From an uncultured Gemmatimonadaceae bacterium (lineage in GTDB: Bacteria; Gemmatimonadota; Gemmatimonadetes; Gemmatimonadales; Gemmatimonadaceae), in the NCBI GenBank assembly GCA_963790305.1, contig CAWBOC010000006.1:224001-288000 (forward strand): a stretch of DNA of 64,000 nt, given 5' to 3'. Positions 5,902 through 64,000 of this stretch are shown here, piece after piece. The translations under genes and the position numbers were made by a program. The notes beneath the pieces were generated by a model that did not search any database, was not told the DNA's origin, and saw only the letters and a program-made list of their open reading frames with translations. How positions within the stretch are numbered: position 1 is the first letter of the stretch; each line of letters starts with the position of its first letter.

Positions 5902-5902
5902 G

Positions 5903-25729: not shown

Positions 25730-25735
25730 CGTCGC

Positions 25736-46317: not shown

Positions 46318-47790
46318 TCAGCTCACCCGCCCGCGTACGAACTCGACGAATGTCCCAACCGGTACGCCCGTGGGCCCCTTCGGAAGCGCGACGAGATCCG
46401 TCTCCGAGTACGCCGTTCCGGCAATGTCGAGATGGACCCAGGGATAGCTGTCAGTGAATTCCTTGAGGAACATGGCTGCCGCGATAGCGCCAGCAGCACG
46501 CCCTCCGGAATTCTTGATGTCGGCGACGTCCGACTTGTTGAGCTCCTTGTAGTCCTCCCACGTCGGGAGGTGCCACCCCGGTTCGCTCGCGCGCTTTCCA
46601 GCGCCTAACACCTCCTGCACGAGCGCCTCGTCGTTTCCGAAGACCCCCGAGGCAGTGTGTCCCAGCGCGATGACGCACGCACCCGTGAGCGTGGCCGCGT
46701 CGAGCACCGCGGCGGGCTCGTAGCGACGCGCCCACGACAACACGTCGCACAACACGAGTCGCCCCTCGGCGTCGGTGTTGACGATCTCAATGTACTTCCC
46801 GAGATGGCTCTTGAGAACGTCACCGGGCTTGAAGGCGGTCCCGCTCGGCATGTTCGTGGTGCTGCCGACGAGCCCGATGACGTTGGCCTTGAGCTCCAGG
46901 CGGCCAATCGCGTCCATCGCGCCAAGCACCGCCGCGGCGCCGCACATGTCGAACTTCATCAGCTCCATGCTCTGCGCCGGCTTGATCGAGATGCCACCGG
47001 AATCGAAGCACAGGCCTTTCCCCACCAACACCACCGGACGCCCGGAGCCGCGCCGATGCTCGAGCGCGATGAGCTTGGGATCCTGCGGCGTCCCCTGGGC
47101 GACGCCGAGAAAGGAGCCCATTCCCTCCTCTTCGAGCTCCTTGCGGCCGAGCACGGTGACCTTCATGCCGTGGCGCTTGGCGATCTCGCGACCCGTATCG
47201 GCGAGGTAGTCGGGCGTGCACAGATTGCCCGGCATCATCGCGAGCCGTCGCGCCAGCGTCATCCCCTCGGCGATCGCGACGCCCGTCTCGACCTCCGCCT
47301 TCGCCCGCTTCTCATCCTGCACGACGACGACCGCCTCGTCAGGCGAGGGACGCTGCTCATCGTCTGGTGGCGGCGTTTTGGTCTCCGTGTATTCCCACAC
47401 GCCCATGGAAAGGCCGACCACCGCGCCCTCGACGCTTCCCGCCGCGCCGTCCTGATACCACGCGATCTCCCGGGCCCCGGTCCGCCGAGCGAAGCGAGCA
47501 GCGATCATCGCGGCGCGCCGGAGCGCACCGCCGGACTCGGTCACGGTCCCCATGCCGACGAGCAGAATCCGTTGCGGACCCTTCGTGCCACCGACGAGAT
47601 GCATCGTCTCATCCCGGCCGAAACGAAAATCCCGCCGATCGATGACCCGGGAGATCGCTCCGCCGAGTGCGTCGTCGAGTCCCTTGATGGCGTCGTCGAG
47701 CTTGGCGCCCTTGGCCAGCGGAAGAACGAGAAGCGGAACGTCGAGCGAGCGGAGCTGTCCGCCGCGAACGGAGAAGCGCAACGGGCTCAC
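46318..47790 (-). CDS. pepA: Leucyl aminopeptidase (M17)
   Basis: [44 protein letters not shown]. Confidence 0.96.
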
Positions 47791-49031
47791 GCCATGCCCT
47801 CGATGATGGCATCGGCGAATGCCGACGTGCTGACTTCGGTGGACCCGGGCATCTGGCGGGCGAGATCGTACGTCACGCGCCGCGACTTGATGGCATGCTC
47901 GATCCCTTTGACGATGAGTCGCCCGACCTCATCCCACTCGAGATACTCGAACATCATGACGCCCGAGAGGATGACGCTGCAGGGATTGACCTTGTCCTGA
48001 CCGGCGTATTTCGGCGCGGTGCCGTGCGTCGCCTCGAAGCACGCGAGACCATCGCCGACGTTGCCCCCTGGCGCCATACCCAGCCCGCCAACCTGGGCCG
48101 CGGCCGCGTCACTCAGGTAGTCGCCATTCAGGTTGGGCGTCGCGATCACGGAATACTCCGACGGGCGCAGCAGCAGCTGCTGGAACATGGCGTCGGCAAT
48201 GCGGTCCTTGATGACGAGACAATCGACCTTCGCGCTGCCGCTGATCTTCGCGAGATCGGCTTCGCTGATCACGTGCTCGCCGTAGCGTTCCTTCGCGACT
48301 TCGTAGCCCCAGTCACGAAAGGCGCCCTCGGTGAACTTCATGATGTTGCCCTTGTGGACGAGGGTCACCGACTGGCGGCCGGTTCTCAAGGCATAGCGGA
48401 TCGCCATGTCGACGAGGCGCTTCGAGCCGAACTCGGACATCGGCTTGATCCCAATGGCCGAACCTTCGCGGATGTCCTTGCCCATCGTGTCGACAATGAA
48501 GTCGCGAACGCGCTTCGCTTCCTCGCTGCCCGCCTTCCACTCGATGCCGGCGTAGACGTCCTCGATGTTCTCGCGGAAGATCACGACGTCGACCTTTCCC
48601 GGCTCCTTGACCGGCGCTCCGACGCCCTCGAAGTAACGCACTGGGCGAATGCAGGCGTAGAGGTCCAGCACCTGTCGCAGCGTCACGTTGAGCGACCGAA
48701 TGCCACCGCCCACGGGCGTGGTGAGAGGACCCTTGATCGAGACGCGAAACTCCTGCATCGCGTCGATGGTCTCCTGAGGCAGCCAATCGTTGTGCGCCTT
48801 GAACGCCTTCTCGCCAGCGAACACCTCCATCCAGGCAACACGGCGCTTCCCGCCGAACGCGCGCTCCACCGCGGCGTCGAAGACGCGTCGTGAGGCGCGC
48901 CAGATATCGGGTCCCGTCCCATCGCCTTCAATGAACGGGATGATCGGTGCGTCGGGAACGTTCAGCTTTCCATGGGAGAAGCCGATGCGCTCGCCATTCC
49001 GCGGCACTGTGGCGAATCGGTAGCTGGTCAT
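47787..49031 (-). CDS. icd: Isocitrate dehydrogenase (NADP-type family)
   Basis: [55 protein letters not shown]; start MTSYRF. Confidence 0.96.
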
Positions 49032-49096
49032 GACTCGATCAGGGAGAGATGGCGCGCGAGCGCGGTCTACGGCCCGCCCGCGCGCGGAATGCGTGC

Positions 49097-50249
49097 CTAA
49101 CGTCGCTGATCGAGCGGCGACACCCGCAACCCACGCGGTCCGACATACTCGGCGCGCGGCCGAATCAGCCGGTTGTTCGCATACTGCTCCAGCAGGTGGG
49201 CCGCCCATCCCGACAGCCGGCTGACCGCGAACAACGGTGTGTACAGGTCGGTCGGAATCCCCATCACGTAGTACGTGGACGCCGAGTAGAAGTCGACGTT
49301 CGGGAGCAGGTTCTTCTCGGCTTTCATCGTTTCCTCGATGCGCCGCGACATCTCGAACCATTGCGGCGTCTTGTACTTGCTGCCGAGCTCCTCCGACATC
49401 CGGCGCAAATGCGTCGCGCGCGGATCTTCGGTTTTGTACACGCGGTGGCCAAAGCCCATGATCTTGCGCTTGCTCGCGAGGGCTTTCTTGATGAAGGGCA
49501 CCGGCTCCTCGCCTTCCTTCTTCATCTCGAGGAGCATTTCCATCACGGCGGTGTTGGCGCCGCCGTGCAGCGGACCCGAGAGCGTTCCGATCGCCGAGAC
49601 GATAGCGGCGTACATGTCGGCGAGCGTCGCGGCGGTCACGCGCGCGGCGAACGTCGAGGCGTTGAGCTCGTGATCGGCGTGGAGAATGAGCGCCGCATCG
49701 ATCGCCCGCTCTTCGAGCTTCTCCGGACGTCTGCCGAGCAGCCGGTAGTACACGTTGCCGGCAAAGGAAAGCGAGCGGATCGGCCTTGATCGGTTCCTTA
49801 CCCTGACGAATCTGCGCCCACGCTCCAAGAAGCGCCGCGATTTGTCCCTGAAGTCTCGCGGCGCGCCGCAGGTTCGCGGTGCGATCATCGACGGGAGACT
49901 GCTTGTCGGGATCGTAGAACGAGAGCTCGGACACGCTTGTCCGCAGGACGTCCATGGGGTCGGCGTCCCTCGGGTAGCGTTTGAGCGATTCGATGAGCGC
50001 CTGCGGGAGGAGGTAGCAGGAGCGAATCGTCTCCGCGAATCCGTCGAGCTCGGCTCGCGACGGGAGCTTGCCGTACCAGAGCAGGTAGACGACTTCCTCG
50101 AACGTCGTGTTCTCGACGAGATCGTGGATGTCGTACCCGCGATAGATGAGCTGGCCCGTCTGGCCGTTGACGTCGGTGATTTCGGACGGGCCGGTGACCA
50201 CATCTTCGAGGCCGGCCGCGGCCGCCTTTACGGTTGCCGAAGTTGCCAT
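49097..50249 (-). CDS. gltA: Citrate synthase (+1 frameshift at ~49775)
   Basis: GLEDVV, LIYRGY then [37 protein letters not shown]. Confidence 0.93.
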
Positions 50250-50523: not shown

Positions 50524-51051
50524 TCAGGGGCGACGTCCCACCGTATCTCCCCGCCGTGCTGGCCCGCCGCCACGGCGCCGCCCGCGCATGTCCTCCATCC
50601 GGCGTCGCACCTGGTCCTGAATCGCCAGATACCGCGCGCGCTGCGTGGGGGTCATGAATGACGAGAGCGCACGCTGCTCGCGTGAGAGAAGGTCGATGCG
50701 CCGACGTTGCACGTCGATGAGCTGGTCGACGTACCGCGCGACCCGTTCCTGATTCGCGCTGTCGCCACGCATGACCTCCGCACGCAGGCTGACCCGCACG
50801 TCGCGCTCTTGCTGGTTCAGCACGCGGCGCTCCGCTTCCATGTCACGATTCACTTCCCCGAGCCGGCGCATTTGATCGGCGGTGAGACCGAGCTGCTGCT
50901 GCACGACCGTCGCCGTGCGCTGGCGAAGGCGCTGCTCGAGCGCCTGTCGGCGCGCGGGTGCCGAATCCGGTTTGGCCCGTTGCGCGTCGACCGTGGACGA
51001 TGCGCCGATGGCCGAGATCGCGAGGAACAGGAGCATTCGCTGGAAGCGCAT
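50524..51051 (-). CDS. Secreted Spy/CpxP-like helical protein
   Basis: Signal peptide; LGLTADQ and MTPTQRA (LTxxQ-like) motifs. Confidence 0.7.
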   Translation of the reverse strand: MRFQRMLLFLAISAIGASSTVDAQRAKPDSAPARRQALEQRLRQRTATVVQQQLGLTADQMRRLGEVNRDMEAERRVLNQQERDVRVSLRAEVMRGDSANQERVARYVDQLIDVQRRRIDLLSREQRALSSFMTPTQRARYLAIQDQVRRRMEDMRGRRRGGGPARRGDTVGRRP

Positions 51052-51671
51052 CAGACGTCTCCCTCGAGAACGGGCAAGAGAACCGCGGGCTCGACATCGA
51101 GCTCGGTGTCGACGTCATCGAGGACCTCGAGCAGCGACTCGAGATCGGCGTCCGCAAGATCGCTGACGCCCCCGCCCATCACGAGCTCGATCCGCGGCGC
51201 TGGCTGCCCTGTGGTCGATGGCGTCGGCGCCGACCCAACAGGTGCAGGGCGCGTCGGCTCTTCGATATGCACTACGACGGGCGGCAGATCGGACGATCCG
51301 GGGGTGCGGTCAAGATTCGAGGCGAGGAGTGCCGCGACGGCAATCGCACCGACTGATGCCGCGGCCAGCCAGACGCGACGCGCCGGCGCGGCGACGCTCG
51401 ACGCTCGACGTCGGCGCGTCTGCGCCACGGCGGTGGTCGCGTCGCGGCGCAGCGCACTCGATCGCGCTACCGCGGCCACGATGCGCGCCGTATCGATCGA
51501 GGGCGTCGCGCTCAGGACACCATGCGCCTTGCGCACGAGCTCGAGCTCCGCGCGACATGCCGCGCACGTCGCGAGGTGGGCGTCGAGCGCGACGAGCGAC
51601 GGACCGCTCAGCGCACCGCGCGCGAGGTCCGGAAGCAAGTCACGCATTTCCATGTTCGTGCATTCACTCAT
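51051..51671 (-). CDS. Membrane anti-sigma factor (zf-HC2/ZAS)
   Basis: HLATCAAC (HxxxCxxC) motif, one TM segment, acidic C-terminus. Confidence 0.85.
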   Translation of the reverse strand: MSECTNMEMRDLLPDLARGALSGPSLVALDAHLATCAACRAELELVRKAHGVLSATPSIDTARIVAAVARSSALRRDATTAVAQTRRRRASSVAAPARRVWLAAASVGAIAVAALLASNLDRTPGSSDLPPVVVHIEEPTRPAPVGSAPTPSTTGQPAPRIELVMGGGVSDLADADLESLLEVLDDVDTELDVEPAVLLPVLEGDV

Positions 51672-52215
51672 TGAGATACTCCTTCACCATGCGTACGGCA
51701 TTGTGATAGTGCACGCGCGCCGCTCCTTCGGTGGTCTCCACGACGTCCGCGATCTCCCGGTAGCTCAATCCTTCCGTCACGCGCAGCGTGAACACCGCCC
51801 GCTGCGTCTCCGTCAGTCCTTCCATCGCCGCCCGGACACGACCCTCTGTCTCCGTCGCGACGGCCGCACTCAATGGATCGTCGGCCGCCAGCGCATGCGT
51901 CTCGTCGATCGCCACCACCAGCGGCGCACGGCGGCTCGCGCGGGCCCGATCCCGACAGAGGTTGCGCGCGATCGAGAACAGCCACGTTCGCAGCGAGCTC
52001 GCCTCGCGAAACCGATCGATCGAGCCAAACGCGCGCACGAACGTGTCCTGCACCACTTCGTCGACCTCCGCGCGCTCGCCCATGCTCGCGACGAATCGCG
52101 ACACGGCGGGCGCGTGCCGCTCGACCAGGATGGTCGCCGCCCGCTCGTCCCCGCCGCGCCACCGCGCGATCAGCGCGACATCGCTCGGTTCCCCGTCCCG
52201 CCTCGGCTCGCTCAT
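51664..52215 (-). CDS. ECF sigma-70 factor
   Basis: DEVVQDTFVRAF, TWLFSIARNLCRD, region-4 HTH LSYREIA. Confidence 0.95.
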   Translation of the reverse strand: MSEPRRDGEPSDVALIARWRGGDERAATILVERHAPAVSRFVASMGERAEVDEVVQDTFVRAFGSIDRFREASSLRTWLFSIARNLCRDRARASRRAPLVVAIDETHALAADDPLSAAVATETEGRVRAAMEGLTETQRAVFTLRVTEGLSYREIADVVETTEGAARVHYHNAVRMVKEYLNE

Positions 52216-52227
52216 CCCGGCATGTGG

Positions 52228-52255
52228 TTGGACGCTTCCGCCCCACCGGTGTTAA
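52228..52255 (-). promoter_or_regulatory. Putative ECF autoregulatory promoter
   Basis: TTAAC-N16-CGTCCAA just upstream of the ECF start (AAC/CGT pattern). Confidence 0.5.
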
Positions 52256-52274
52256 GTGCGGATTCCAGGCGTCC

Positions 52275-52323
52275 TTGACTTCGCCCCCGCGCCCTGGGTA
52301 CGTTCACACCGAACGCTCGTTCG
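52275..52323 (+). promoter_or_regulatory. sigma70 promoter plus PaaR-type operator for the catabolic operon
   Basis: TTGACT-N18-TACGTT followed by the palindrome CGAACG-CT-CGTTCG (52310-52323). Confidence 0.75.
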
Positions 52324-52345
52324 ACACCCGGTTCCAGGGGGGCGG

Positions 52346-52972
52346 ATGGCTCACCAGCAGGCGCACGACGAGAAGCTCGACGCACTCCTGGCGGCCGCCG
52401 CCCGCGTCTTCGCCAAGCGCGGCTACCACGAAACGAGCATGCGCGACCTCGCCCGCGAATCGGGGGTCTCGCTCTCCGGCCTCTACTACTACGTCAAGAG
52501 CAAGGACGAGCTGCTCTTCCTGATCCAGGACCGCAGCTTCGCGGCTGTCCTCGCGAGCATGGAAGAGGCCACGGCCGGGATCGAGAACCCGGTCGAGCGC
52601 CTGGCCCGCTTCGTCGACAACCACCTCGACTATTTCGCGTCGCACATGGCAGAGATGAAGGTGCTGTCGCACGAGTCGGGTGCGCTTTCGGGAGAGATGC
52701 TCTCGCAGGTGAACGCCAAGAAGCGGGAGTATACGCGAGTCCTGATGGATATTCTCGCCGACGTCGAGCGGACCTGCGGCGCGGCGCACGTGAATCGCCG
52801 AATTGCGACCTACACGCTCTTCGGCATGATGAACTGGATCTACAACTGGTACGATCCTCTCGGCGATCTCAGTGTCGAGGTGTTGAGCCAGAGCATCTGC
52901 CGGCTCTTCCTCGGCGGGTATGTCGGGATGCCGGTGTCGGAGTCGGTTATGCCACACATGACGGCGGGATAG
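52346..52972 (+). CDS. TetR family regulator (PaaR/KstR2-like, acyl-CoA-responsive type)
   Basis: HTH FAKRGYHETSMRDLA..GLYYYVKSKDELL; C-terminal GMMNWIYNWY. Confidence 0.9.
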   Translation: MAHQQAHDEKLDALLAAAARVFAKRGYHETSMRDLARESGVSLSGLYYYVKSKDELLFLIQDRSFAAVLASMEEATAGIENPVERLARFVDNHLDYFASHMAEMKVLSHESGALSGEMLSQVNAKKREYTRVLMDILADVERTCGAAHVNRRIATYTLFGMMNWIYNWYDPLGDLSVEVLSQSICRLFLGGYVGMPVSESVMPHMTAG

Positions 52973-53021
52973 CACTCAGCTCGTTCCCGCGCACGCAGCA
53001 GCTTTTCACCAGAGGAATCCC

Positions 53022-53837
53022 ATGGCCACAGCCACCATGACCGAGCGCGAAGCGACCACCCTCGTTCGGTACCGCAAGGAGGGGCACGTCGCGATCTTCG
53101 AGCTCGATGATCCGCCGGCCAACACGTACACGCACGAGATGATGCGCCAGCTCGACGACTGCATCCTCCGCGCGCGTTTCGATGGCGACATTCACGTGAT
53201 CATCCTGCGGGGTGCGGGCGAGAAGTTCTTCAGCGCCGGCGCCAACATCAAGATGCTCAACGAGGCCGATCCGACCTGGAAGTACTACTTCTGCCTCCAC
53301 GCCAACGAGACGTTGAGCCGCCTCGAGCAGACCCCCAAGCTGGTGATCGCGGCGCTCAACGGCCACTGCGTCGGCGGCGGGCTCGAGATCGCCATGGCGG
53401 CGGACATTCGCATCGCCCGCCAGGACGCGGGGAAGATCGGTTTGCCCGAAGTCAACCTTGGCGTGCTGCCGGGCACGGGCGGGACACAGCGTCTCGCGCG
53501 GCTCATTGGCAAGGCGAAGGCGATCGAGCTCATGGTGACAGGGCGCACCTTCTCCTTCGAGGAAGCCGAGAAGATGGGGCTGGTCAACGCCGTGCTGCCG
53601 AAGGAGGACTGGTGGGACAACGTCCTCCTCTACGCCCAGCAGTTCACGCTGCCGAACAAGGCGGCGATGGCGGTGGGTCACATCAAGCGGTCGGTGCAAT
53701 CGGGGCTCGAGATGGCGTTCGAGTATGGGCTGTCGCTCGAGCGTGAGCTGCAGAGCCAGCTCTTCAAGAGCAGCGACGCCAAGGAAGGCATCGGAGCCTA
53801 CGTCGAAAAGCGGCAGCCACGCTTTCAGGGCCGCTGA
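53022..53837 (+). CDS. Single-domain crotonase resembling the BoxC N-terminal domain (putative epoxide/oxepin-CoA ring-cleaving hydrolase)
   Basis: SAGANIKML...WKYYFCLHANET...GGGLE...LPEVNLGVLPGTGG. Confidence 0.7.
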   Translation: MATATMTEREATTLVRYRKEGHVAIFELDDPPANTYTHEMMRQLDDCILRARFDGDIHVIILRGAGEKFFSAGANIKMLNEADPTWKYYFCLHANETLSRLEQTPKLVIAALNGHCVGGGLEIAMAADIRIARQDAGKIGLPEVNLGVLPGTGGTQRLARLIGKAKAIELMVTGRTFSFEEAEKMGLVNAVLPKEDWWDNVLLYAQQFTLPNKAAMAVGHIKRSVQSGLEMAFEYGLSLERELQSQLFKSSDAKEGIGAYVEKRQPRFQGR

Positions 53838-53839
53838 CC

Positions 53840-55306
53840 ATGGGCGCCGGCGTCGCGACCGAGACGCTTCCCACGCGGCTGTTCATCAACGGTGAGCAGC
53901 TGGAAGCCGCGGAGGGTCGAACCCATGACGTGATCAATCCGGCGACGGAGGAAGTGATCGCCTCGGTCGCGGCCGCCGGCGAGGGGGACGTCGATCGTGC
54001 GGTTCGCAGCGCACGCGCCACGTTCGAGTCGGACAAATGGCGAAAGACGAGCGCGCGTCAACGAGGCGAAGCGGTCTACCGCCTCGGCGAGCTGATTCTC
54101 AAGAACAAGGACGAGCTTGCCCGCCTCGAGACGCTGAACAACGGCAAGCCCGTCTTCGAGTCGATGATCGACGTGCGTCTCGCTGCCGCCACATACAAAT
54201 ACTATGGCGGCTGGGCGGACAAGATCCACGGGGAGACGATCCCCGTGGACGGACCGTTCCTGAACTACACGTTGCGGGAGCCGTTAGGCGTCGTCGGAGC
54301 GATCGTTCCCTGGAACTTTCCGATTTCGCTGGCCGCGTGGAAGGTGGCACCGGCGCTCGCCTGCGGTAACACCGTCGTGTTGAAGCCCGCCGAGCTCACG
54401 CCGTTCACGGCGATTCGAATGGCGGAGCTCGCCATCGAGGCAGGATTGCCGCCGGGCGCCTTCAACTGCATTCCCGGTCCAGGCTCGGTCGCCGGTAACG
54501 CGCTCGTCACGCATTCCGACGTCGACAAGATCGCCTTCACGGGCAGTACCGAGGTCGGGAAGCAGATCATGCGGGACGCGGCGGGAACGGTAAAGAAGAT
54601 TTCGCTCGAGCTGGGCGGGAAATCGCCGAACATCGTTTACGCGGACGCCGATCTCGACGCCGCGGCTCGCGGCGCCCTGACGGGAATTTTCTACGGCAAG
54701 GGTGAGGTCTGCGCGGCGGGATCGCGACTGCTCGTCGAGGACAGCGCTGCCGAGGAGATGCGCACGCGCATTCTCGAGCGGGCGAAGAAGATGGTAGCAG
54801 GCGATCCCCTTGACCCGAAGACCCGCCTCGGCGCGCTCGTCTCGAAGAAGCAGATGGACCGCGTGCTCGGCTATATCGAAAGCGGCAAGTCCGAGGGCGC
54901 GACGCTGCTGAGCGGTGGCGCCCGCACACCCGTGAATGGCAAAGGGTACTTCGTGCAGCCGACGGTGTTCGAGGGCGTCGAGCGCGAGATGACGATCGCG
55001 CGCGAAGAAATCTTCGGTCCCGTGCTGGCGATGATGACGTTCAGCGACGGCATGACGGGCGCCACGGAGCTGGCGAACGCGACGATCTACGGGCTCGCCG
55101 CGGGAATCTGGACGCGCGACATCAAGAAGGCCCTGCGCACCGCGCGGGAAATCCGCGCAGGCACGGTGTGGATCAACACGTACAACATGTACGACGCGGC
55201 CTCCCCGTTCGGCGGGTTCAAGCAGTCGGGTTTCGGCCGCGACCTCGGCGTGCACGCGCTCGAGGGGTACATGCAGGTCAAGTCGGTGTGGGTAGATCTT
55301 TCATGA
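53840..55306 (+). CDS. NAD(P)-dependent aldehyde dehydrogenase
   Basis: PWNFP, KPAE, FTGST, LELGGKSP, GEVC, EEIFGPV, PFGGFKQSG. Confidence 0.95.
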   Translation: MGAGVATETLPTRLFINGEQLEAAEGRTHDVINPATEEVIASVAAAGEGDVDRAVRSARATFESDKWRKTSARQRGEAVYRLGELILKNKDELARLETLNNGKPVFESMIDVRLAAATYKYYGGWADKIHGETIPVDGPFLNYTLREPLGVVGAIVPWNFPISLAAWKVAPALACGNTVVLKPAELTPFTAIRMAELAIEAGLPPGAFNCIPGPGSVAGNALVTHSDVDKIAFTGSTEVGKQIMRDAAGTVKKISLELGGKSPNIVYADADLDAAARGALTGIFYGKGEVCAAGSRLLVEDSAAEEMRTRILERAKKMVAGDPLDPKTRLGALVSKKQMDRVLGYIESGKSEGATLLSGGARTPVNGKGYFVQPTVFEGVEREMTIAREEIFGPVLAMMTFSDGMTGATELANATIYGLAAGIWTRDIKKALRTAREIRAGTVWINTYNMYDAASPFGGFKQSGFGRDLGVHALEGYMQVKSVWVDLS

Positions 55307-55394
55307 GAATGCGGAATGCGGAATGCGGAACACGAGTAAGACCCTCGCTGGTTCGACGGTCTTACGAGAATTCCGCATTCCGCATTCCGCATTC
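55307..55394. repeat. Perfect heptamer-built inverted repeat
   Basis: (GAATGCG)3GAA at 55307-55330 pairs with TTC(CGCATTC)3 at 55371-55394; inner stem GTAAGACC/GGTCTTAC. Confidence 0.95.
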
Positions 55395-55401
55395 GTAAGC
55401 A

Positions 55402-56613
55402 ATGTCCGTTATGCGCGAAGACGTCTTCCTCATCGACGCCGTTCGCACGCCCATCGGTCGTCACGGTGGCGTGCTGGCGCGGATGCGGCCCGATGATCTT
55501 GCGGCGACGGCGATCGCTGAGCTCGTCAAGCGCAGCGGCGTGGAGCCGTCGAGCATCGACGACGTCATTCTTGGGTGCGCCAATCAGGCCGGCGAGGATA
55601 CGCGCAACGTGGCCCGCATGGCGCTGCTCCTCGCCGGGCTCCCGGTCGAAGTGCCGGGCCAAACGGTGAATCGACTGTGTGGCTCGGGGCTTCAGGCTCT
55701 CGCCAGCGCCTCCCAGGCGATTCGTGCGGGAGAAGGCGACGTCTTCATCGCCGGCGGCGTGGAGAGCATGTCGCGCGCGCCCTGGGTGATGCTCAAGCCC
55801 GAGGATGGGTTTTCGCGCACGCTGCCCGCCATGGCGGACACGACGATCGGGTGGCGTTTCGTCAATCCGAGAATGCCGCGCGAGTGGACGATCTCCCTGG
55901 GCGAAACAGCCGAGGAGGTCGCGCGCTGCTACGGGGTCACGCGCGAGGAGCAGGATGCCTTCGCCCACGAGAGCCAGCAGCGCACCAAGCGGGCGCTCGA
56001 GGAGGATCGCTTCCGGGATGAGCTCGTTCCCGTGGAGGTCGTCACCAGGAGCGGAAAGACGGTGGTCGAGCGCGATGAGCATCCGCGACCCGAGACGACA
56101 CTCGAGACGTTGCGTGGGATGCGACCGGCGTTCGTAAAAGAGGGTGGAACCGTCACCGCCGGCTCGTCGAGTGGAATCAACGACGGGGCCAGCGCCGCCC
56201 TCGTGATGTCCGCTGACGCCGCGAAGCAGCTTGGGCATAAGCCCCTCGCGCGGATTGTCGCCACCGCGGTGGCCGGCGTCGCACCGAACGTGATGGGCAT
56301 TGGACCCGTACCCGCCACACGTCGCGTCCTCGAACGCGCCGGTCTCACCATCGACGACATTGATCTCATCGAGCTCAACGAGGCCTTCGCATCGCAGGCG
56401 ATCGCGTGTATCCGTCAGCTCGGCGCCGACCCGGACCGTGTCAACGTCAACGGCGGGGCGATCGCGCTCGGGCATCCGTTAGGCGCCTCGGGGGCACGCA
56501 TCGTCACGACGCTCGCGCACGAGCTGCGGCGCCGGGAAAAGCGGTACGGCCTGGCGACGATGTGCATCGGGGTCGGTCAAGGCATTGCGACGGTGCTGGA
56601 GCGCGTCACGTGA
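55402..56613 (+). CDS. Thiolase (PaaJ/PcaF-like 3-oxoadipyl-CoA thiolase)
   Basis: [52 protein letters not shown]. Confidence 0.9.
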
Positions 56614-57404
56614 CGTACGAACAGATCCTGCTCAATCGCTCGGAAGGCATCGGGACGCTCACGCTCAACCGGCCCGACAAGCTCAACGCGTTTGCCGGGC
56701 GGATGCGCCAGGAGATTGCCGACGGCCTCGATGAGCTGGAGAAGGATGATTCCGTTCGGGTGATCGTCATTACCGGCGCCGGCCGCGGATTTTGCGCCGG
56801 GGGCGACGTCACGTACATGGGCGAGCTCGTCGAGCGCCGCGATGTGGAGTCGATGGCCGCGCTCGTCGATGCTGGACGTCACGTCGTCATGACGATCCGA
56901 AACTCTCGCAAGCCAGTGATCGCGAGTGTCAACGGAGTCGCCGCGGGGGGCGGCGCAAATCTCGCCCTTGCCTGTGACCTCCGAATCGCCAGCGAGCTCG
57001 CGAGCCTCGGGCAAACGTTCAACCGCATCGGCCTGCATCCCGATTGGGGAGGCACCTACTTCCTGCCCCGACTCGTCGGGCCGGCGAAGGCACTCGAGCT
57101 GTTCTGGTTCGCCGACATGATCGATGCGCGGGAGTGCGAGCGCCTCGGCCTGTTCAACAAGGTGGTCCCACACGCATTGCTCGTCGATGCGACACGCGCA
57201 TGGGCGCGCACGCTCGCGAGCAAGCCGGGTCTCGCGATCGCCTTGGCGAAGCGTGCCGTGTATGACTCGCCCGATCGCACGCTGCCGCAGATGCTGGACT
57301 ACGAGCTCGACGCACAGCTTCGGTGCTTCGAGAGCGGAGACGCAGGCGAAGGAATCCGCGCCTTCAGCGAGAAGCGCGCGGCACAGTTCGGAGCAGCCCG
57401 TTAG
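56610..57404 (+). CDS. Enoyl-CoA isomerase (PaaG-like crotonase)
   Basis: [29 protein letters not shown] (Asp-type active site lacking the two Glu). Confidence 0.75.
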
Positions 57405-57425
57405 GACTTCAGGAGGATGTAACTC

Positions 57426-58592
57426 ATGGCAATGGCGAAGATTGGCAACTTTGACGACTGGATCGACCTGTTCAAGTTCTGGCAGGACGACATTGGTCTC
57501 CAGGTATCCGAGCTCAAGAACTACAAGTTCGACGTGAAGCTCGGCGAGCTCGAGGTGCCGGAGATCGAATTCGGCCACTACAAGGGGCAGCGGAAATGGC
57601 CGACGATCATGCACATCCCCGATCAGCGAATTCGAGATGCGCTGCAGAACCTGATCATCTTCCAGGGCGACACGGAGTTCGCCTCGGTGGAGCAGCAGCG
57701 TAGCCTGCTGCAGAATGCGCCGTCGGACTACGACCTGCTCTCGATCTATCGCGTGATGGCGGAGGAGATGCGCCACGGATGGCAGATGTCGTATCTCCTG
57801 GTGGCGCATTTCGGCGACGAGGGAAAGCGCGAGGCCGAGAAGCTGCTGGAGCGCCGCGCCGATGAGCACGAGCGGTTACTGGGCTCGTTCAACGAAGCGG
57901 TGGAGAACTGGCTCGACTTCTTCGCCTACACTCAGTTCATCGACCGCGACGGCAAGTATCAGCTGCAGATGCTCTCGACGTCGGCGTTCGCGCCGCTGTC
58001 CCGCTCGATGAAGCCGATGCTGAAGGAGGAGTCATTCCACCTCGGCACCGGGAACAACGGGTTGCTCCGCATCATCAAGGCGCGGCGGATCCCGACCGAT
58101 ATCATCCAGCGGTACCTGAACAAATGGGTGTCGACCGCGTTCGATCTCTTTGGCACCGACCAGTCATCGTCCGCCCAGTGGGCGTACGTCTGGGGACTGA
58201 AGGGACGGTTCGACGAGCGTACCAACGCGCAGCCTGCGGACGAGCGCAAGCTCAACGAGCACGCGCGCGAGCTGTATCGCCAGGAAGTGTCGGGACTGAT
58301 CGAGCGCCTGAACCAGCATATCCCCGCCGATCAGGTAAAGCTCAAGATCCCGAGCGAGAAGTTCAACCGGCGCATTGGCATCTGGAAAGGACAGACCTTC
58401 ACCGTCGATGGTGAGCCGATCGAGCGCGAGAAGTACAAGGAGTACGTCGCCTCGGTCACGCCGACGGCACAGGACCGCGCGTTCCTGGCCGACGTGTTCA
58501 AGGAGCGCGACTGGATCCTCGAGAAGAAGGTGGATGAGAAGGAGCGGGAGTGGCTCGCCGGGCCCTCCTCCGGAGGCGGCGCGGTGAATTGA
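57426..58592 (+). CDS. BoxB-type di-iron aryl-CoA epoxidase oxygenase (short form, 388 aa)
   Basis: QGDTEFASVEQQR, APS.YD, EEMRHGWQM, FIDRDGKYQL, EESFH, IQRYLNKW...DLFG...S, GLKGR, FNRRIG. Confidence 0.85.
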   Translation: MAMAKIGNFDDWIDLFKFWQDDIGLQVSELKNYKFDVKLGELEVPEIEFGHYKGQRKWPTIMHIPDQRIRDALQNLIIFQGDTEFASVEQQRSLLQNAPSDYDLLSIYRVMAEEMRHGWQMSYLLVAHFGDEGKREAEKLLERRADEHERLLGSFNEAVENWLDFFAYTQFIDRDGKYQLQMLSTSAFAPLSRSMKPMLKEESFHLGTGNNGLLRIIKARRIPTDIIQRYLNKWVSTAFDLFGTDQSSSAQWAYVWGLKGRFDERTNAQPADERKLNEHARELYRQEVSGLIERLNQHIPADQVKLKIPSEKFNRRIGIWKGQTFTVDGEPIEREKYKEYVASVTPTAQDRAFLADVFKERDWILEKKVDEKEREWLAGPSSGGGAVN

Positions 58593-59297
58593 GCCGCTCC
58601 CCGGAGCTGATCGGCCATCGCGGCGCGCCGCGCGAGCGCCCGGAGAACACGCTTGCCTCGTTTCTCCGGGCGCTCGATTTGGGTGCGGACGCCGTCGAGC
58701 TCGATGTCCATGCGACGCGCGATGGCGTCGTCGTCGTGCATCACGATTTCGTTCCGCGAGCGGAGTCGAGCGTGGCCGCACTCGGCGGACGCCCAATAGC
58801 GGAGCTCACCGCGGCCGACCTCGGCACGTTTCAAGTGGCCGGGGAGCCGATCCCGACGCTTGCCAGCGTGCTCGAAGCGATTGGTGGGCGAGCAACGGTG
58901 TACGTCGAGATCAAGGGGCGGGACATTGAAGAGGCAGTCATTGCGACCATCGAGAGCGCTCCCTCCGCCGAGGCGGGTCGCGGTGCACTCATTCGATCAC
59001 CGCGCTGTGGTGCGCACCCGCACGATGCGGCCGGACCTTCCCTCGGGAATTCTGTCGGCGTCATATCTCATCGACCCACAGGGCGCGCTGCGCGCGGCGA
59101 AGGCGCGCGACTATTGGCAGGAAGGATCGATGGTCGATGAGGCGCTCGTCGACGCGATCCACGATGCCAAGGGGCGCGTGATCGCCTGGACCGTGAACGA
59201 CCCCGAGCGCGCGCGTCGCCTCGCATCGATTGGCGTCGACGGCATCTGCACCGATGTGCTGCAGGTCATAGGGCCCGCGCTCGCGAGCACATCGTGA
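58589..59297 (+). CDS. Glycerophosphodiester phosphodiesterase family protein (+1 frameshift at ~58972)
   Basis: GHRGA...ENT, ELDV, VHHD, VEIK, SFDH, WTVN, GVDGICTD; TTG start overlaps the upstream stop. Confidence 0.88.
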
Positions 59298-60158
59298 CCA
59301 TTCGTCGCATTGCCGTGATTGGGGCAGGCACGATGGGGCATGGTATCGCGTACGTCGCCTCGGCCGCGGGCTACGAGGTTCGCCTGGCCGACGCGGATGC
59401 GGCGACGCTCGCCACCGGGATGCGAGAGGATTCGCGAAGCGTTCGACAAGGCGATCGAGCGCGGAAAGGCGACGGCGGCCTCGCGAGACGAAGGGCTGAG
59501 ACGCCTCACGAGCGCCGGCAGCGCCGGCGAGGCTGCGCGGGACGCGGATCTCGTCATCGAGGCGGTGCCGGAGCGGCTCGAGCTCAAACAGTCGATCTTC
59601 CGGGAGCTCGAACGGTCGGTTTCCACCGAGGCGATCCTGGGCAGCAACACGTCGTCGCTCTCGATCACGCGGATTGCTGACGGTCTGGCGCACCCGGGGC
59701 GCGTGGTTGGCCTGCACTTCTTCAATCCCGTCCCGGTGATGAAGCTGCTCGAGATCGTCCGTGGGGAGCGCACGAGTGAGGGCGTCGTCGACAGCGCGCG
59801 GACCTTCGCGACCTCGCTTGGCAAGACAGCGATCCTCGTGCGCGATACTCCCGGATTCGCGACGAGCCGGCTCGGCGTCGTGCTGGGGCTCGAGGCCATT
59901 CGCATGCTCGAGCAGGGCGTCGCGTCGGCGGAGGACATTGACCGCGCGATGGAGCTGGGATACAATCATCCGATGGGACCGCTACGGCTGACCGACGTGG
60001 TCGGGCTCGATGTCCGTCTCGCGATCGCCGAGCATCTGTACGCGACACTGAAGGACGACACGTACAACCCCCCTGCCCTGCTTCGTCGCCTGGTGAGTGA
60101 AGGGAAGTTAGGCAAGAAGACGGGACGAGGATTCTACTCCTGGGAGAATGACCGATGA
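59294..60158 (+). CDS. 3-hydroxyacyl-CoA dehydrogenase (+1 frameshift at ~59423)
   Basis: GAGTMGHGIA, IEAVPE..ELK, SNTSSL, GLHFFNP, PMGPL..D.VGLD, GKKTGRGFY. Confidence 0.92.
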
Positions 60159-60937
60159 CCGAACCGGAAGTCGTTCTTCTCGAGCAGCGTGGCCGCGTAG
60201 CGCTGGTAACGATGAATCGGCCGGAGAAGCGTAACGCGCTCGACGGTCAAATGCGGTGCGCGTTTCTCGGCGTCATGGATCGCGTTCGGCGCGACACGAA
60301 CACTCGGGCCGTCGTGGTCACCGGCGCCGGTGACAAGGCGTTCATCGCGGGCGCCGACATCAGCGAGTTCGAGGGGCGGTCACCCGTCGATCAATACCGC
60401 GTCATGCGCCTTCCCACCGTGTTCGACGCGATCGAGCGATTCCCGAAGCCGGTGATCGCCGCCGTGAACGGGTTCTGCCTTGGCGGCGGAATGGAGCTCG
60501 CACTCGCGTGCGACATTCGCCTCGCCTCGGCCAACGCCAAGTTCGGGCAACCGGAGGTCAACCTCGGCATCATCCCCGGCGGTGGTGGCACGCAGCGATT
60601 GCCCCGCATCATCGGGCTCGGTCACGCACTGCGACTGATCCTCACCGGCGACATGATCACGGCCGACGAGGCGCTGCGACTTGGGCTCGTGTCGGAGGCA
60701 GTTCCGGGCGACGTGCTACTCGACCGCGCGATCGCGATCGGCGAGCTGATCGCGTCGAAGAGTCCCGTGGCCGTTGCCGCCGCGAAGGAGGCGACGCGCG
60801 CGTCAATGAGCCTGCCGCTCGACGAAGGGCTGCGTCTCGAGACGGCGCTCTTCCAGCTCTGCTTCTCGAGTGAGGACAAGGCGGAAGGGGTGCGAGCGTT
60901 TCTGGAGAAGAGGGCGGCGAACTTCACGGGGCGATGA
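60155..60937 (+). CDS. Enoyl-CoA hydratase (PaaF/crotonase-like)
   Basis: AGADISE, GGGMELA, FGQPEVNLG (both catalytic Glu present). Confidence 0.9.
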   Translation: MTEPEVVLLEQRGRVALVTMNRPEKRNALDGQMRCAFLGVMDRVRRDTNTRAVVVTGAGDKAFIAGADISEFEGRSPVDQYRVMRLPTVFDAIERFPKPVIAAVNGFCLGGGMELALACDIRLASANAKFGQPEVNLGIIPGGGGTQRLPRIIGLGHALRLILTGDMITADEALRLGLVSEAVPGDVLLDRAIAIGELIASKSPVAVAAAKEATRASMSLPLDEGLRLETALFQLCFSSEDKAEGVRAFLEKRAANFTGR

Positions 60938-61857
60938 GGAAGATCGAAGGCGGAATTCGGAATGCGGATTCGGAATCGGCAGGCATCCTTCCGCATTCCG
61001 CATTCCGTATTACGGACTGCCACATCCACATCCAGCCCTGGCGGCAGCTCAAGCCCGCCGTGATGGAGACCATGCGGCGCGGCAAGGAGGATCGCTTCGA
61101 GTTCCTGCTCGCGCTGATGGACGATCCCAAGCTCCTGCTTCGGATCATGGATGAGGAGGGCATCGACCGCGTCGGCATGGTGAACTATCCGAGCCCTGAT
61201 CTCATGGGGTTCACCAACGACACCAACGACTTCGCCGCTCGTTATGCGGAAGCGGACCCACGCCGGTTGATTCCCTACGGTGGCGTACACCCGCGTTTCG
61301 CCAAGGATGCAGCCGGTGAGGTGCGGCGACTCGTCGAGCTGGGCGTTCGGATGCTCAAGATTCATCCAAACCACCAATGCTTCCCCGCCAACGCGTACAC
61401 CGAAGGGCTCGATGCACTCGGCGTGTTGTACAAGGCGTGCGAGGATCACGGGCTGCCGGTCATGATTCACACCGGGACGAGCATCTTTCCGGGGGCGCGA
61501 AGCAAATGGGGAAATCCGATGGAGATGGATGACGTCGCCATCGACTTCCCGGACCTGCCCCTGGTGATGGCGCACGGCGGACGCCCGCTGTACATGGCCG
61601 AAGCGTTCTTCATCCTCCGGCGGCATAAACGCGTCTGGCTCGATCTCTCGGGAATTCCGCCGAAGGGCCTCCTCGGATACTTCCCGCGCATCGCCGAGCT
61701 CGAGGCGCAGCTGCTGTGGGGGACGGACTGGCCAAGTCCGGGTGTCGAGAGCATGCGCCGCAACGTCGATGACTTCCTCGGGCTGGCGCTGCCCGAGAGC
61801 ATCAAGCGCGCGGCGCTGGAGACAAATCCCGAGCGGCTACTACCCACGACAGTCTGA
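60934..61857 (+). CDS. Amidohydrolase_2 family metal-dependent hydrolase/decarboxylase
   Basis: DCHIH, KIHP.HQ, IHTG, AHGG, DLSG, WGTDWP. Confidence 0.88.
   Translation: MRKIEGGIRNADSESAGILPHSAFRITDCHIHIQPWRQLKPAVMETMRRGKEDRFEFLLALMDDPKLLLRIMDEEGIDRVGMVNYPSPDLMGFTNDTNDFAARYAEADPRRLIPYGGVHPRFAKDAAGEVRRLVELGVRMLKIHPNHQCFPANAYTEGLDALGVLYKACEDHGLPVMIHTGTSIFPGARSKWGNPMEMDDVAIDFPDLPLVMAHGGRPLYMAEAFFILRRHKRVWLDLSGIPPKGLLGYFPRIAELEAQLLWGTDWPSPGVESMRRNVDDFLGLALPESIKRAALETNPERLLPTTV
60946..61010. repeat. Degenerate heptamer inverted repeat inside the amidohydrolase 5' end
   Basis: GAAGGCGGAATTCGGAATGCGGATTCGGAA ... TTCCGCATTCCGCATTCCGTAT. Confidence 0.8.
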
Positions 61858-61946
61858 TTGCCGCTTCTGGCCGCTGAGTGCCTTCGGAAGTAGGTTCTGC
61901 TCGCAACGAGCCGACACGAAGAACTCTCAAGACGGAGGCCCCCGAC

Positions 61947-63377
61947 GTGACGCGGTTCGCCATCCTCGCAGTCGCCGCTACCACTGCCTGCGCTTCCGGA
62001 AGCACGACAGCGCGTACGCCGACGACATCGAGTACTCCTGCAACGGAGACGAGCGCTCAAGGTGCCGCGGGATCGGGCGCCCTCTCGTCCCCGCTCGCCG
62101 ATCCATTCCCGAGTACCTACGCACCATTTCCGTCGCGGCCGACGGTCATCCGCAACGTCACGATCTTCACCGCCGCGGGACCGCGCATCGCGAACGGCGC
62201 GATTCTCCTTCGAGATGGCAAGATCGCCGCCGTCGGCGCGACCGTGGATGCGCCGGCTGATGCCGTCGTGATCGACGGCTCGGGAAAGTTCGTCACGCCG
62301 GGCCTGGTCGATAACCATTCGCACATGGGCGTGTACGCCGCACCGGGCGTGCAGGCCAACAGCGACGGGAACGAAGCGACCAACCCGGTTACCGCGAACG
62401 TGTGGGCAGAGCACTCGGTGTGGCCGCAGGATCCGCAGTTTCCGCGGGCATTGGCGGGGGGTATTACCACCGCGCAGATCCTCCCCGGCTCGGCGAACCT
62501 CATCGGCGGGCGGTCGGTCGTGCTCAAGGTCGTTCCCGCCCGCACCGTGCAGGCGATGAAGTTCCCCGGGGCAAAGTACGGTCTGAAAATGGCCTGCGGC
62601 GAGAATCCAAAGCGCGTCTATGCGAGCCGCGGTCCGTCCACACGCATGGGAAATGTCGCCGGCTATCGCAACGCATGGATTCAGGCGGAGCAATACCGCC
62701 GTCGCTGGGACAAGTGGCTGGCCGACAAGAAAGGTGAGCCGCCCGGTCGGGATCTCGGCAACGAGACGCTGGCCGAGGTGCTGCGCGGCAACATTCTCAT
62801 CCACAACCATTGCTATCGTGCCGATGAGATGGCGCAGATGATCGACATCGCGAAGGAATTCGGCTACCGGATTCGCGCGTTCCACCACGGCGTCGAGGCA
62901 TACAAGATCGCCGACTTGCTGGCCCGGGATTCGATTGCGGCGTCGATCTGGGCCGACTGGGGCGCCTTCAAGATGGAAGCGCTGGATGGCGTAAAGGGGA
63001 ACATGGCTCTCGTGCACCAGGCCGGAGGGCGCACGGTCGTCCACTCCGACGATCCGTCGGGCATTCAGCGACTCAATCAGGAAGCCGCCAAGGGGATCGC
63101 CGCTGGCGCGGCGTTAGGCGTCACGGTCAGCGAGGACGACGCGATCAAGTGGTTGACGCTGAATCCGGCATGGTCACTCGGCCTGGACGACCGCATCGGC
63201 TCGATCGAGGTCGGCAAGAACGCCGACATCGTACTGTGGAGCGGCAATCCGTTCAGCGTGTACTCGCGCGCCGAGCGTGTGTGGATCGACGGGGCGCAGA
63301 TGTTCGACCGCTCCGACGCCACGGAAGCCTGGCGCACGGATTTCGAGCTTGGCTTCGTGCGGCGGAGCGGACAATGA
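61947..63377 (+). CDS. Exported/lipoprotein amidohydrolase (imidazolonepropionase-like family)
   Basis: GGAGG RBS and GTG start; signal peptide ending ATTAC; TPGLVDNHSH, KMACGENP, NHCYRADE, HHGVEAY, HSDD, GSIEVGKNAD. Confidence 0.88.
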   Translation: MTRFAILAVAATTACASGSTTARTPTTSSTPATETSAQGAAGSGALSSPLADPFPSTYAPFPSRPTVIRNVTIFTAAGPRIANGAILLRDGKIAAVGATVDAPADAVVIDGSGKFVTPGLVDNHSHMGVYAAPGVQANSDGNEATNPVTANVWAEHSVWPQDPQFPRALAGGITTAQILPGSANLIGGRSVVLKVVPARTVQAMKFPGAKYGLKMACGENPKRVYASRGPSTRMGNVAGYRNAWIQAEQYRRRWDKWLADKKGEPPGRDLGNETLAEVLRGNILIHNHCYRADEMAQMIDIAKEFGYRIRAFHHGVEAYKIADLLARDSIAASIWADWGAFKMEALDGVKGNMALVHQAGGRTVVHSDDPSGIQRLNQEAAKGIAAGAALGVTVSEDDAIKWLTLNPAWSLGLDDRIGSIEVGKNADIVLWSGNPFSVYSRAERVWIDGAQMFDRSDATEAWRTDFELGFVRRSGQ

Positions 63378-64000
63378 GAATGACAACGGCGTTAGGGGTG
63401 CTGGTGGCGCTGGGGCTCGTCGTCACCGCACAGGCGCAGACGATCGCCATCGTCGGTGGTCGCGTGCTCCCGGTGAGCGGCCCGCCTATCGACGGCGGCA
63501 CGGTCATTATTCGTGACGGCAGGATTACGGCGGTGGGACGTGACGTCGCCATTCCCGAGGGCGCTCAGCGCATTGACGCGGCCGGAAAATGGGTGACCCC
63601 CGGCATCATCAACCCGGCGACGCAGCTCGGCCTGGTCGAGGTCGGACAGGTGCGTGAAACGCGAAACGCCACCGCCAGGGGAGATGAAGCGAGCGCTGTC
63701 CGCGCCGCGTTTACCGTGTGGGATGGCTTGAACCCGCTCTCCGTGCTGTTCGCCCCTGCGCGCAACGAAGGGGTGACGACCGTCGCGGTCCTCCCCACCG
63801 GTGGGCTCGTGTCGGGACAGGGCGCGCTGGTCGACATCGTGGATGGCGGCGTCAGCGACATGATGGTGAGATCGCCTATCGCGATGGTTGCGCAGGTAGG
63901 CGACCCCGAGTCGGCGAACGCAGACTCGCGCGGCGAGCTCCTGCTTCGTCTGCGCGAGCTGCTCGAGGATTCGCGCGCGTATGCTCGCCGCCGGGCGGAC
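63374..64000 (+). CDS. Exported amidohydrolase-fold protein lacking the HxH motif (truncated by the window end)
   Basis: Manual translation: MRMTTALGVLVALGLVVTAQAQTIAIVGGRV...IDAAGKWVTPGIINPATQLGLVEV...EGVTT. Confidence 0.8.
   Translation, partial: MRMTTALGVLVALGLVVTAQAQTIAIVGGRVLPVSGPPIDGGTVIIRDGRITAVGRDVAIPEGAQRIDAAGKWVTPGIINPATQLGLVEVGQVRETRNATARGDEASAVRAAFTVWDGLNPLSVLFAPARNEGVTTVAVLPTGGLVSGQGALVDIVDGGVSDMMVRSPIAMVAQVGDPESANADSRGELLLRLRELLEDSRAYARRRAD

Follow-up and report, generated by a model that had tools for sequence, protein, structure and literature searches.

A conserved operon around a short BoxB-like di-iron protein in Gemmatimonadota: a candidate variant of aerobic aryl-CoA epoxidation

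A BoxB-centred operon in an uncultured member of the Gemmatimonadaceae

Ten co-oriented genes in a 64,000-nucleotide stretch of an uncultured Gemmatimonadaceae bacterium (the window; G000:C6:224001-288000, from a 4.3 Mb genome of 13 contigs that is 94 % complete) form a conserved operon around a short BoxB-like di-iron protein, and we lean slightly towards reading it as a form of the aerobic epoxide (Box-type) pathway that does without BoxA and BoxC and acts on benzoyl-CoA or a closely similar aryl-CoA. The operon encodes, in this order, a TetR regulator, a single-domain crotonase (ECH1), an aldehyde dehydrogenase (ALDH), a thiolase, an enoyl-CoA isomerase (ECH2), the di-iron protein (hereafter short BoxB), a GDPD-family phosphodiesterase, a 3-hydroxyacyl-CoA dehydrogenase (HCDH), an enoyl-CoA hydratase (ECH3) and an Amidohydro_2 hydrolase (AH2; Table 1). 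Benzoyl-CoA holds a central position in the turnover of aromatic carbon, and the only O2-dependent opening of it known to us requires BoxA, BoxB and BoxC.

An earlier reading of the DNA letters and open reading frames (the sequence-only reading) had described these ten genes as a minimal, non-canonical Box-like operon with neither reductase nor ligase. The ten genes, their families and their shared strand are all present, no reductase or ligase gene lies within the operon, and the description as a conserved, non-canonical acyl-CoA operon centred on a BoxB-like protein is borne out. The present analysis established by computation the gene families, the residues of the active site, the fold, gene order and co-occurrence; all catalytic assignments, the substrate and the electron donor are what we infer.

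The short BoxB-like di-iron protein

With 388 residues, short BoxB lies outside the canonical BoxB clade by profile score as well as by tree, as its designation as a short, atypical BoxB had implied. The BoxB model TIGR03225 matches it with 246.2 bits (curated cut-off, 499.1) over model positions 68–322 and 353–441 of 471, and the PaaA model TIGR02156 with 44 bits (cut-off, 280). In sequence comparison, BoxB of Azoarcus evansii (3PER) scores 201 bits with ~55 % identity over residues 29–218, and PaaA 25 bits. All six iron ligands (E120, E150, H153, D211, E240 and H243) are identical and also invariant in 18 sequences of the short clade. Besides the iron ligands, PMC5489048 lists seven BoxB residues orienting benzoyl-CoA (Q116, T119, S123, F193, F203, F206 and T210); five of the residues listed there (Q116, T119, S123, F193 and F203) are kept.

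The AlphaFold model of short BoxB (pLDDT 78) retrieves BoxB chains as top matches in the Protein Data Bank (PDB; TMq 0.81–0.83, root-mean-square deviation 2.7–4.0), followed by PaaA (TMq ~0.49) and SSO1313 of Sulfolobus solfataricus (4MUD). The latter, an uncharacterised short PaaA/BoxB-like protein, is likewise a compact ferritin-like relative (67 bits, TMq 0.44), but has only 235 residues and is a much weaker match. Phylogenetic analysis of 35 sequences with the root placed on PaaA (quick search, LG+G4 model, long-branch rows flagged) puts the short forms into a clade (SH-aLRT 96) separate from that of the canonical long BoxB proteins (SH-aLRT 99). Since pocket and fold are conserved, it may be argued from the aligned residues and the predicted model that the protein would bind aryl-CoA much as BoxB binds benzoyl-CoA and would epoxidise it.

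Distribution and gene order

The short-BoxB family has 141 representatives (E < 1e-30) in a 50 %-identity library and was confirmed for uncultured soil lineages in 589 or more species genomes, apparently always without BoxA and BoxC as partners. The 80 best-matching loci comprise 41 with record titles naming Gemmatimonadota (one title reading 'bacterium HR33') and 39 of other phyla. All of these best 80 carriers are metagenome-assembled genomes (MAGs), assigned to Gemmatimonadota, Acidobacteriota, Rokubacteria, Zixibacteria, Ignavibacteria, Bacteroidota, Armatimonadota and proteobacterial bins. Existing database labels for the family are 'boxB' or 'PaaI', so that metagenome surveys may misread aromatic-degradation potential; no paper on the short BoxB clade was found in a literature search.

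Gene order was counted in those loci with enough flank, i.e., 28 of Gemmatimonadota (at least 5.5 kb upstream) and 31 of other phyla for the upstream side, and 30 and 33, respectively, for the downstream side. The operon arrangement is common to 10/10 relatives from three families of the order, and TetR, ECH1, ALDH, thiolase and ECH2 are present in 28/28 Gemmatimonadota loci; an arrangement shared to this extent is far beyond chance. A lack of conserved synteny in other genomes had been named by the sequence-only reading as a ground for giving up its proposal; synteny was found in each of these relatives and loci. Downstream in the Gemmatimonadota loci follow GDPD (28/30), AH2 (28/30), HCDH (27/30) and ECH3 (15/30). 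In other phyla, ECH1 (19/31), TetR (18/31), ALDH (7/31) and AH2 (12/33) are encoded near the di-iron gene; thiolase (0/31) and GDPD (0/33) were not found near it in these loci, GDPD being confined to the Gemmatimonadota form of the operon. A core of TetR, ECH1, ALDH, di-iron protein and AH2 recurs outside Gemmatimonadota.

The di-iron gene is situated among housekeeping genes in 12/31 loci of other phyla. In all five tested genomes with such a lone di-iron gene, an ECH1 orthologue (58–72 % identity) stands beside an ALDH orthologue elsewhere, and in G042 this pair also adjoins HCDH and AH2. Of the 41 relatives, each of the 21 that possess short BoxB also encodes an orthologue of ECH1 (identity of at least 67 %), as does one of the 20 that lack it, namely G009 of a sister genus. 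There, the di-iron gene is cleanly absent between ECH2 and GDPD (L132, G009:C95:1-11084), and a divergent BoxB-like gene of 434 codons is located elsewhere among unrelated genes (L133 9566-10870, − strand).

No reductase or ligase gene adjoins short BoxB in any annotated neighbourhood. At a single locus (L107), a small [2Fe-2S] ferredoxin is encoded directly downstream of it. In a Rokubacteria MAG (L080 8239-9930, + strand), the short BoxB frame reaches 564 aa and is followed by genes for a Zn-dependent alcohol dehydrogenase, an ECH1 orthologue and a fusion of KAS III with a carrier protein.

Exclusivity with PaaA and association with a molybdenum enzyme

An even sample of 301 Gemmatimonadota genomes was surveyed, short BoxB being called at E ≤ 1e-60 and PaaA above its cut-off. 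The survey and association counts include the unpublished genomes G015, G207, G128 and G349; dropping these shifts each count by one and leaves the conclusions unchanged. Short BoxB is encoded in 55 and canonical PaaA in 62 of the 301 genomes, but both in none; all carriers belong to one order (199 genomes), for which 17 shared genomes are expected by chance. At genus level, 28 genera with short BoxB and 24 with PaaA have no member in common, and the 41 relatives divide into 21 with short BoxB, 10 with PaaA and none with both. These figures overstate significance, since related genomes are not independent, but the pattern holds inside both large families. The Acidobacteriota counterpart (short BoxB in 15/301, PaaA in 6/301, with an expected overlap of 0.3 genomes) has no power.

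Such exclusivity, together with the presence in the operon of a candidate for every role in the lower Paa pathway, would suit a phenylacetyl-CoA pathway in which the short di-iron protein replaces PaaABCDE, ECH2 corresponds to PaaG, ECH1 and ALDH to a split PaaZ, and the remaining enzymes to PaaJ, PaaF and PaaH. This alternative is nevertheless improbable: the protein is BoxB-like rather than PaaA-like by the sequence comparison given above, phenylacetyl-CoA is reported not to be oxidised by BoxB (PMC4498308), PaaK is without any match in the genome, and the lower-pathway proteins are merely 40–59 % identical to those of sister paa clusters (58–59 % in case of the thiolase, compared with canonical paa clusters in sister genera). 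Moreover, as the genomes are related, the exclusivity may mirror lineage or niche, and its replicate in Acidobacteriota is underpowered.

A second association concerns a molybdenum enzyme of the 4-hydroxybenzoyl-CoA reductase (HBCR) type. Genes for its γ, α and β subunits are located downstream of the cluster in 15 of the 80 loci, all of them from Acidobacteriota; the α subunit at L127 scores 996.9 bits, above the cut-off of 994.55, and CoA-transferase subunits are also encoded in the cluster at L127, L126 and L129. In the genome studied here, γ, α and β genes of an HBCR-type enzyme lie among unrelated genes on another contig (G000:C10:354165-358184; L162 8138-12220). Its α subunit remains below the cut-off (852 bits), and its β subunit contains four Cys (C123, C139, C147 and C156) in a ~42-residue insert, which we take to be the [4Fe-4S] loop that sets the Thauera enzyme apart (HcrB ligands). 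An HBCR-like α subunit is encoded in 51/55 genomes with short BoxB vs 25/144 others of the order. The exclusivity of short BoxB and PaaA and the association with the molybdenum enzyme are both new here. Given this co-occurring enzyme outside the operon, the term 'minimal' pathway used in the sequence-only reading fits poorly. Replacement of short BoxB by canonical BoxB in HBCR-bearing families was considered and rejected, canonical BoxB being present in merely 2/301 genomes.

Candidates for ring opening and semialdehyde oxidation

ECH1 had been taken for a half-size BoxC, but is not recognisable as such. Its top solved structure is 2PPY, an enoyl-CoA hydratase of Geobacillus (237 bits vs 103 bits for BoxC, 2W3P), the BoxC model TIGR03222 matches it with 83 bits (cut-off, 712), and it consists of one domain, compared to the two crotonase domains of BoxC (~550 aa). 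A literature search on GK1992/2PPY returned nothing relevant. Among the crotonases of the genome, ECH1 comes closest to BoxC; across phyla it shows 66–72 % identity and is 76 % conserved column-wise. As described in PMC4498308, the activity of BoxC is confined to its N-terminal two-Glu domain, BoxC co-purifies with BoxB, which relies on it to relieve product inhibition, and catalytic amounts of BoxA suffice for BoxB; the two catalytic Glu of this active domain are present in ECH1. As a two-Glu crotonase linked with the di-iron gene through both gene neighbourhood and shared occurrence, ECH1 is the natural candidate for the ring-opening role of BoxC, which it would fill as a functional analogue.

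The predicted complex of the di-iron protein and ECH1 received a score of 0.37 (best of three controls, 0.08), the runs sharing at least 88 % of contacts and the partner pLDDT being at least 90. The mark applied is reached by 116/157 solved complexes and 2/215 mismatches, and with scores of ≤0.60 by 18/157 and both mismatches. The prediction may thus be counted as weak backing for the pairing, passes at such low scores being false more frequently than true where the pairing was not already probable.

ALDH is nearest to generic class 1/2 types (ALDH1/2, BADH and StyD) and represents a candidate ring-cleavage semialdehyde dehydrogenase, i.e., a functional analogue of BoxD. The best NCBIfam match of the TetR protein is Bacillus FadR (68 bits, under cut-off), and the regulator is probably an acyl-CoA-responsive repressor.

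The FadR-like regulator and the generic affiliation of ECH1 (enoyl-CoA hydratase) and ALDH are also compatible with a β-oxidation operon for a non-aromatic acyl-CoA (e.g., an unsaturated or dicarboxylic acid from lipid breakdown), to which the di-iron protein would contribute as an accessory desaturase or hydroxylase. GDPD hints at lipid head groups in this respect, and the operon of G009 without the di-iron gene as well as the 12 of 31 loci in other phyla with this gene among housekeeping genes point in the same direction. Conservation of the benzoyl-CoA pocket residues, the lack of an acyl-CoA dehydrogenase in the operon, the 3-oxoadipyl type of its thiolase and, in 15 loci, the physical linkage between the cluster and genes of an aryl-CoA-type molybdenum enzyme argue against such a function, and separate FadJ-like multifunctional proteins are encoded in the genome (761-aa and 647-aa frames); a role in non-aromatic β-oxidation is therefore unlikely.

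Search for partners elsewhere in the genome

Neither BoxA (34 bits at best; cut-off, 459) nor BoxC (for which ECH1 itself scores highest, as given above) was found in the 94 % complete genome, the sole match of the PaaA model is the short BoxB gene, and the markers HGD-D (class I) and AFOR_C (BamB type) of anaerobic benzoyl-CoA reductases are without match. The absence of an alternative dearomatiser among those searched for in the genome (BoxA, BoxC, PaaA, HGD-D and AFOR_C) is counted in favour of the Box-like reading.

About six stand-alone AMP-binding ligases are encoded in the genome, none of them near the operon. One gene of the benzoate-CoA-ligase family is located on contig C9 (389 bits, above the cut-off of 375). 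Of the canonical boxA, full-length boxC and ligase whose presence elsewhere in the genome the sequence-only reading had named as counter-evidence, BoxA (34 bits) and BoxC (83 bits) were not found, and the ligase family has one member, which belongs to another cluster. This cluster (G000:C9:767800-774995; L158 2800-9992) is of the salicylyl-CoA 5-hydroxylase / 2-aminobenzoyl-CoA monooxygenase-reductase type and encodes a fusion protein (NF006101; 1234 bits vs 1078), a short-chain dehydrogenase/reductase (SDR), a crotonase, an acyl-CoA dehydrogenase, the benzoate-CoA-ligase-family enzyme and RidA. Positioned between the genes for acyl-CoA dehydrogenase and RidA, the ligase gene was rejected as the ligase of the operon.

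Proposed pathway

Each step following CoA-activation has a candidate enzyme in the operon, as the sequence-only reading had proposed. Short BoxB would convert the aryl thioester with O2 and two electrons to a ring epoxide. ECH1, perhaps with the help of AH2, would hydrolyse the epoxide/oxepin to a semialdehyde, which ALDH would oxidise; one may speculate that AH2 shares the second hydrolytic step of BoxC. The resulting C6 dicarboxyl-CoA could then be converted by ECH2 (isomerase), ECH3 (hydratase), HCDH and the 3-oxoadipyl-CoA-type thiolase to succinyl-CoA and acetyl-CoA. TetR would repress the operon until an acyl-CoA intermediate builds up, and the aryl-CoA may originate from the HBCR-type molybdenum enzyme encoded elsewhere in the genome. 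This HBCR link and the fact that no other dearomatiser was found suggest benzoyl-CoA as substrate; the Tyr and Ile changes in the pocket suggest a substituted analogue instead.

Several observations weigh against this Box-type reading. With respect to short BoxB itself, three insertions of BoxB (an N-terminal stretch and two internal ones) are missing, and its BoxB score is half of the cut-off. In its pocket, F206 is replaced by Tyr (as in at least 90 % of the 18 short-clade sequences) and T210 by Ile, whereas two canonical representatives have Phe and Thr, and the substrate may therefore differ. ECH1 and ALDH resemble generic enzymes more closely than they do BoxC or BoxD, GDPD is without a place in the proposed scheme, and in G009 the operon persists in full except for the di-iron gene. 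Neither the genome (BoxA search) nor the annotated neighbourhoods revealed an electron donor, the cluster contains no ligase, and the lone ligase of the benzoate-CoA-ligase family belongs to the other cluster. Furthermore, the link to the molybdenum enzyme is not exclusive: an HBCR-like α subunit is also encoded in 94/246 Gemmatimonadota genomes without short BoxB, and families f6 (20/23) and f7 (39/48) carry it without short BoxB, PaaA or canonical BoxB.

Compared to the BoxAB–BoxC–BoxD pathway of A. evansii and Burkholderia xenovorans (BoxB 3PER/3PM5, BoxC 2W3P), the operon shares a di-iron ferritin-like oxygenase with the same iron ligands and most benzoyl contacts, a two-Glu crotonase, an ALDH and the β-oxidation set for dehydroadipyl-CoA. 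It differs by an oxygenase that is ~90 residues shorter, lacks the three insertions, forms a clade of its own and falls under the family cut-off, by the absence of BoxA, by a one-domain crotonase not BoxC-like in sequence, by an ALDH not of BoxD type, and by the TetR regulator and the addition of AH2 and GDPD. With the PaaABCDE–PaaG–PaaZ–PaaJFH pathway it has in common the CoA thioester, ring epoxide, hydrolytic opening, semialdehyde oxidation and β-oxidation, as well as homologous lower-pathway enzymes (40–59 % identity); unlike in the Paa pathway, there is one oxygenase subunit instead of five, the PaaA model scores 44 vs 280, PaaK is lacking, and short BoxB shares no genome with PaaA (301 Gemmatimonadota). 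The HBCR-type enzyme resembles that of Thauera aromatica (HcrCAB; TIGR03193-03195) in its γ-α-β layout, α scores of 852–997 bits and the four-Cys β insert, but the known enzyme serves anaerobic benzoyl-CoA reduction rather than an O2-dependent route, and in the genome studied here the α subunit is under the cut-off (852 vs 994.55), the enzyme being unlinked to the operon in Gemmatimonadota.

The operon probably represents a variant O2-dependent route by which benzoate-like acids are degraded, one widely shared by major soil phyla. A bolder and rather doubtful extension would be that major soil phyla (Gemmatimonadota, Acidobacteriota and others) use a hitherto undescribed, entirely CoA-dependent aerobic 4-hydroxybenzoate/benzoate route, in which the HBCR-type enzyme delivers benzoyl-CoA, a compact BoxB that receives its electrons from a general ferredoxin in place of BoxA epoxidises it, and the two hydrolytic steps of BoxC are split between ECH1 and Amidohydro_2. 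If active, the Box-type variant would entail a more compact epoxidase supplied with electrons in another way, ring-cleavage steps distributed among enzymes in a new manner and possibly the aerobic use of a reductase regarded as anaerobic, and would offer a testable handle on the use of lignin-derived acids by abundant Gemmatimonadota and Acidobacteriota.

Gene content of the operon and its surroundings

The operon (Table 1), delineated by open reading frames and profile searches (Pfam and NCBIfam), extends between 52256 and 61857. The stop/start overlap noted in the sequence-only reading was found at five junctions, i.e., thiolase/ECH2, di-iron protein/GDPD, GDPD/HCDH, HCDH/ECH3 and ECH3/AH2. 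The thiolase falls 20 bits short of its model's cut-off (577 vs 597 bits). ECH2 is devoid of the two hydratase Glu (sequence motifs), and PaaG is its top-scoring family, yet below cut-off. The sole PDB relative of AH2 is BB4693, an uncharacterised protein (64 bits).

Table 1 Genes of the operon, with positions in the window and profile evidence
Gene product	Position	Strand	Evidence
TetR regulator	52346..52972	+	Pfam TetR_N and TetR_C_24; open frame from GTG 52256, orthologues align from ~residue 28
ECH1, single-domain crotonase, 271 aa	53022..53837	+	ECH_1 197 bits; both Glu motifs present
ALDH, NAD(P)-dependent aldehyde dehydrogenase	53840..55306	+	Aldedh 600 bits
Thiolase, 3-oxoadipyl-CoA (PcaF/PaaJ) type	55402..56613	+	TIGR02430 577 bits (cut-off 597)
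ECH2, PaaG-like enoyl-CoA isomerase	56610..57404	+	TIGR02280 (PaaG) 228 bits (cut-off 345)
Short BoxB-like di-iron oxygenase (putative), 388 aa, PaaA_PaaC family	57426..58592	+	TIGR03225 246 bits (cut-off 499)
GDPD-family phosphodiesterase	58550..59297	+	Two Pfam GDPD halves in two frames
HCDH, 3-hydroxyacyl-CoA dehydrogenase, PaaH-like role (putative)	59294..60158	+	3HCDH_N starts at profile position 39; Rossmann N-terminus in other frame
ECH3, canonical two-Glu enoyl-CoA hydratase, PaaF-like role (putative)	60155..60937	+	ECH_1 236 bits; PaaF model 259 bits (cut-off 371)
AH2, Amidohydro_2 metal-dependent hydrolase	60934..61857	+	PF04909 132 bits

Two hydrolases of Amidohydro_1/3 type are encoded downstream of the operon (61878-63377 and 63149-64000, both on the + strand), the first of them with a hydrophobic N-terminus. 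Since they lie ~4 kb farther off in relatives of family f2, they are probably not members of the operon. Upstream, genes for an extracytoplasmic function (ECF) sigma factor and a zf-HC2 anti-sigma factor (51054-52251, − strand) are divergent from the TetR gene, and this region is kept in relatives of the same family, where it was seen as antisense matches. A 523-aa frame (50707-52278, + strand) belongs to no family, runs antisense to the sigma/anti-sigma genes and was treated as spurious. An operator scan of 52180-53060 revealed no inverted repeats, and neither promoter-like sites (1 vs a shuffle mean of 1.4) nor terminator-like ones (2 vs 6.2) provided a usable signal.

Frameshifts in the GDPD and HCDH genes

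Two genes of the operon are interrupted in the assembly, GDPD by one extra base near 58968-58970 and HCDH by one near 59425-59426. Both bases are missing from the aligned sequences of three same-genus genomes, and in G003 GDPD (247-aa frame) and HCDH are both intact. Contigs of four soil metagenome runs (X1–X4; two samples of two studies) were aligned to the region: the base at 58970 is absent in contigs of X1, X2 and X3, and that at 59425 in contigs of X2, X3 and X4, in each case from every covering contig. Housekeeping genes of the window are likewise broken or merged (18649-20002, 47787-50249, 23039-25735 and 3766-5910, all on the − strand): nuoD is split into two frames, the N-terminal part of citrate synthase (profile positions 1–145 of 357) continues in the same frame into isocitrate dehydrogenase, SdhA and SdhB domains are contained within one stop-to-stop frame, and UPF0182 is truncated. 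This suggests that the assembly of the window is rich in indels.

On account of the same-genus genomes and covering contigs without the two bases, and of the housekeeping genes also broken, the frameshifts in GDPD and HCDH are regarded as assembly indels rather than marks of pseudogenes. That two one-base insertions occur in neighbouring genes, neither within a long homopolymer, might be taken as a sign of genuine frameshifts in an operon decaying in this strain. Such decay is very improbable in view of the three same-genus genomes lacking both bases, the similar damage to nuoD and citrate synthase, and the covering contigs of all four metagenome runs, some of which differ elsewhere by merely 0–5 bases over 220–350 bases.

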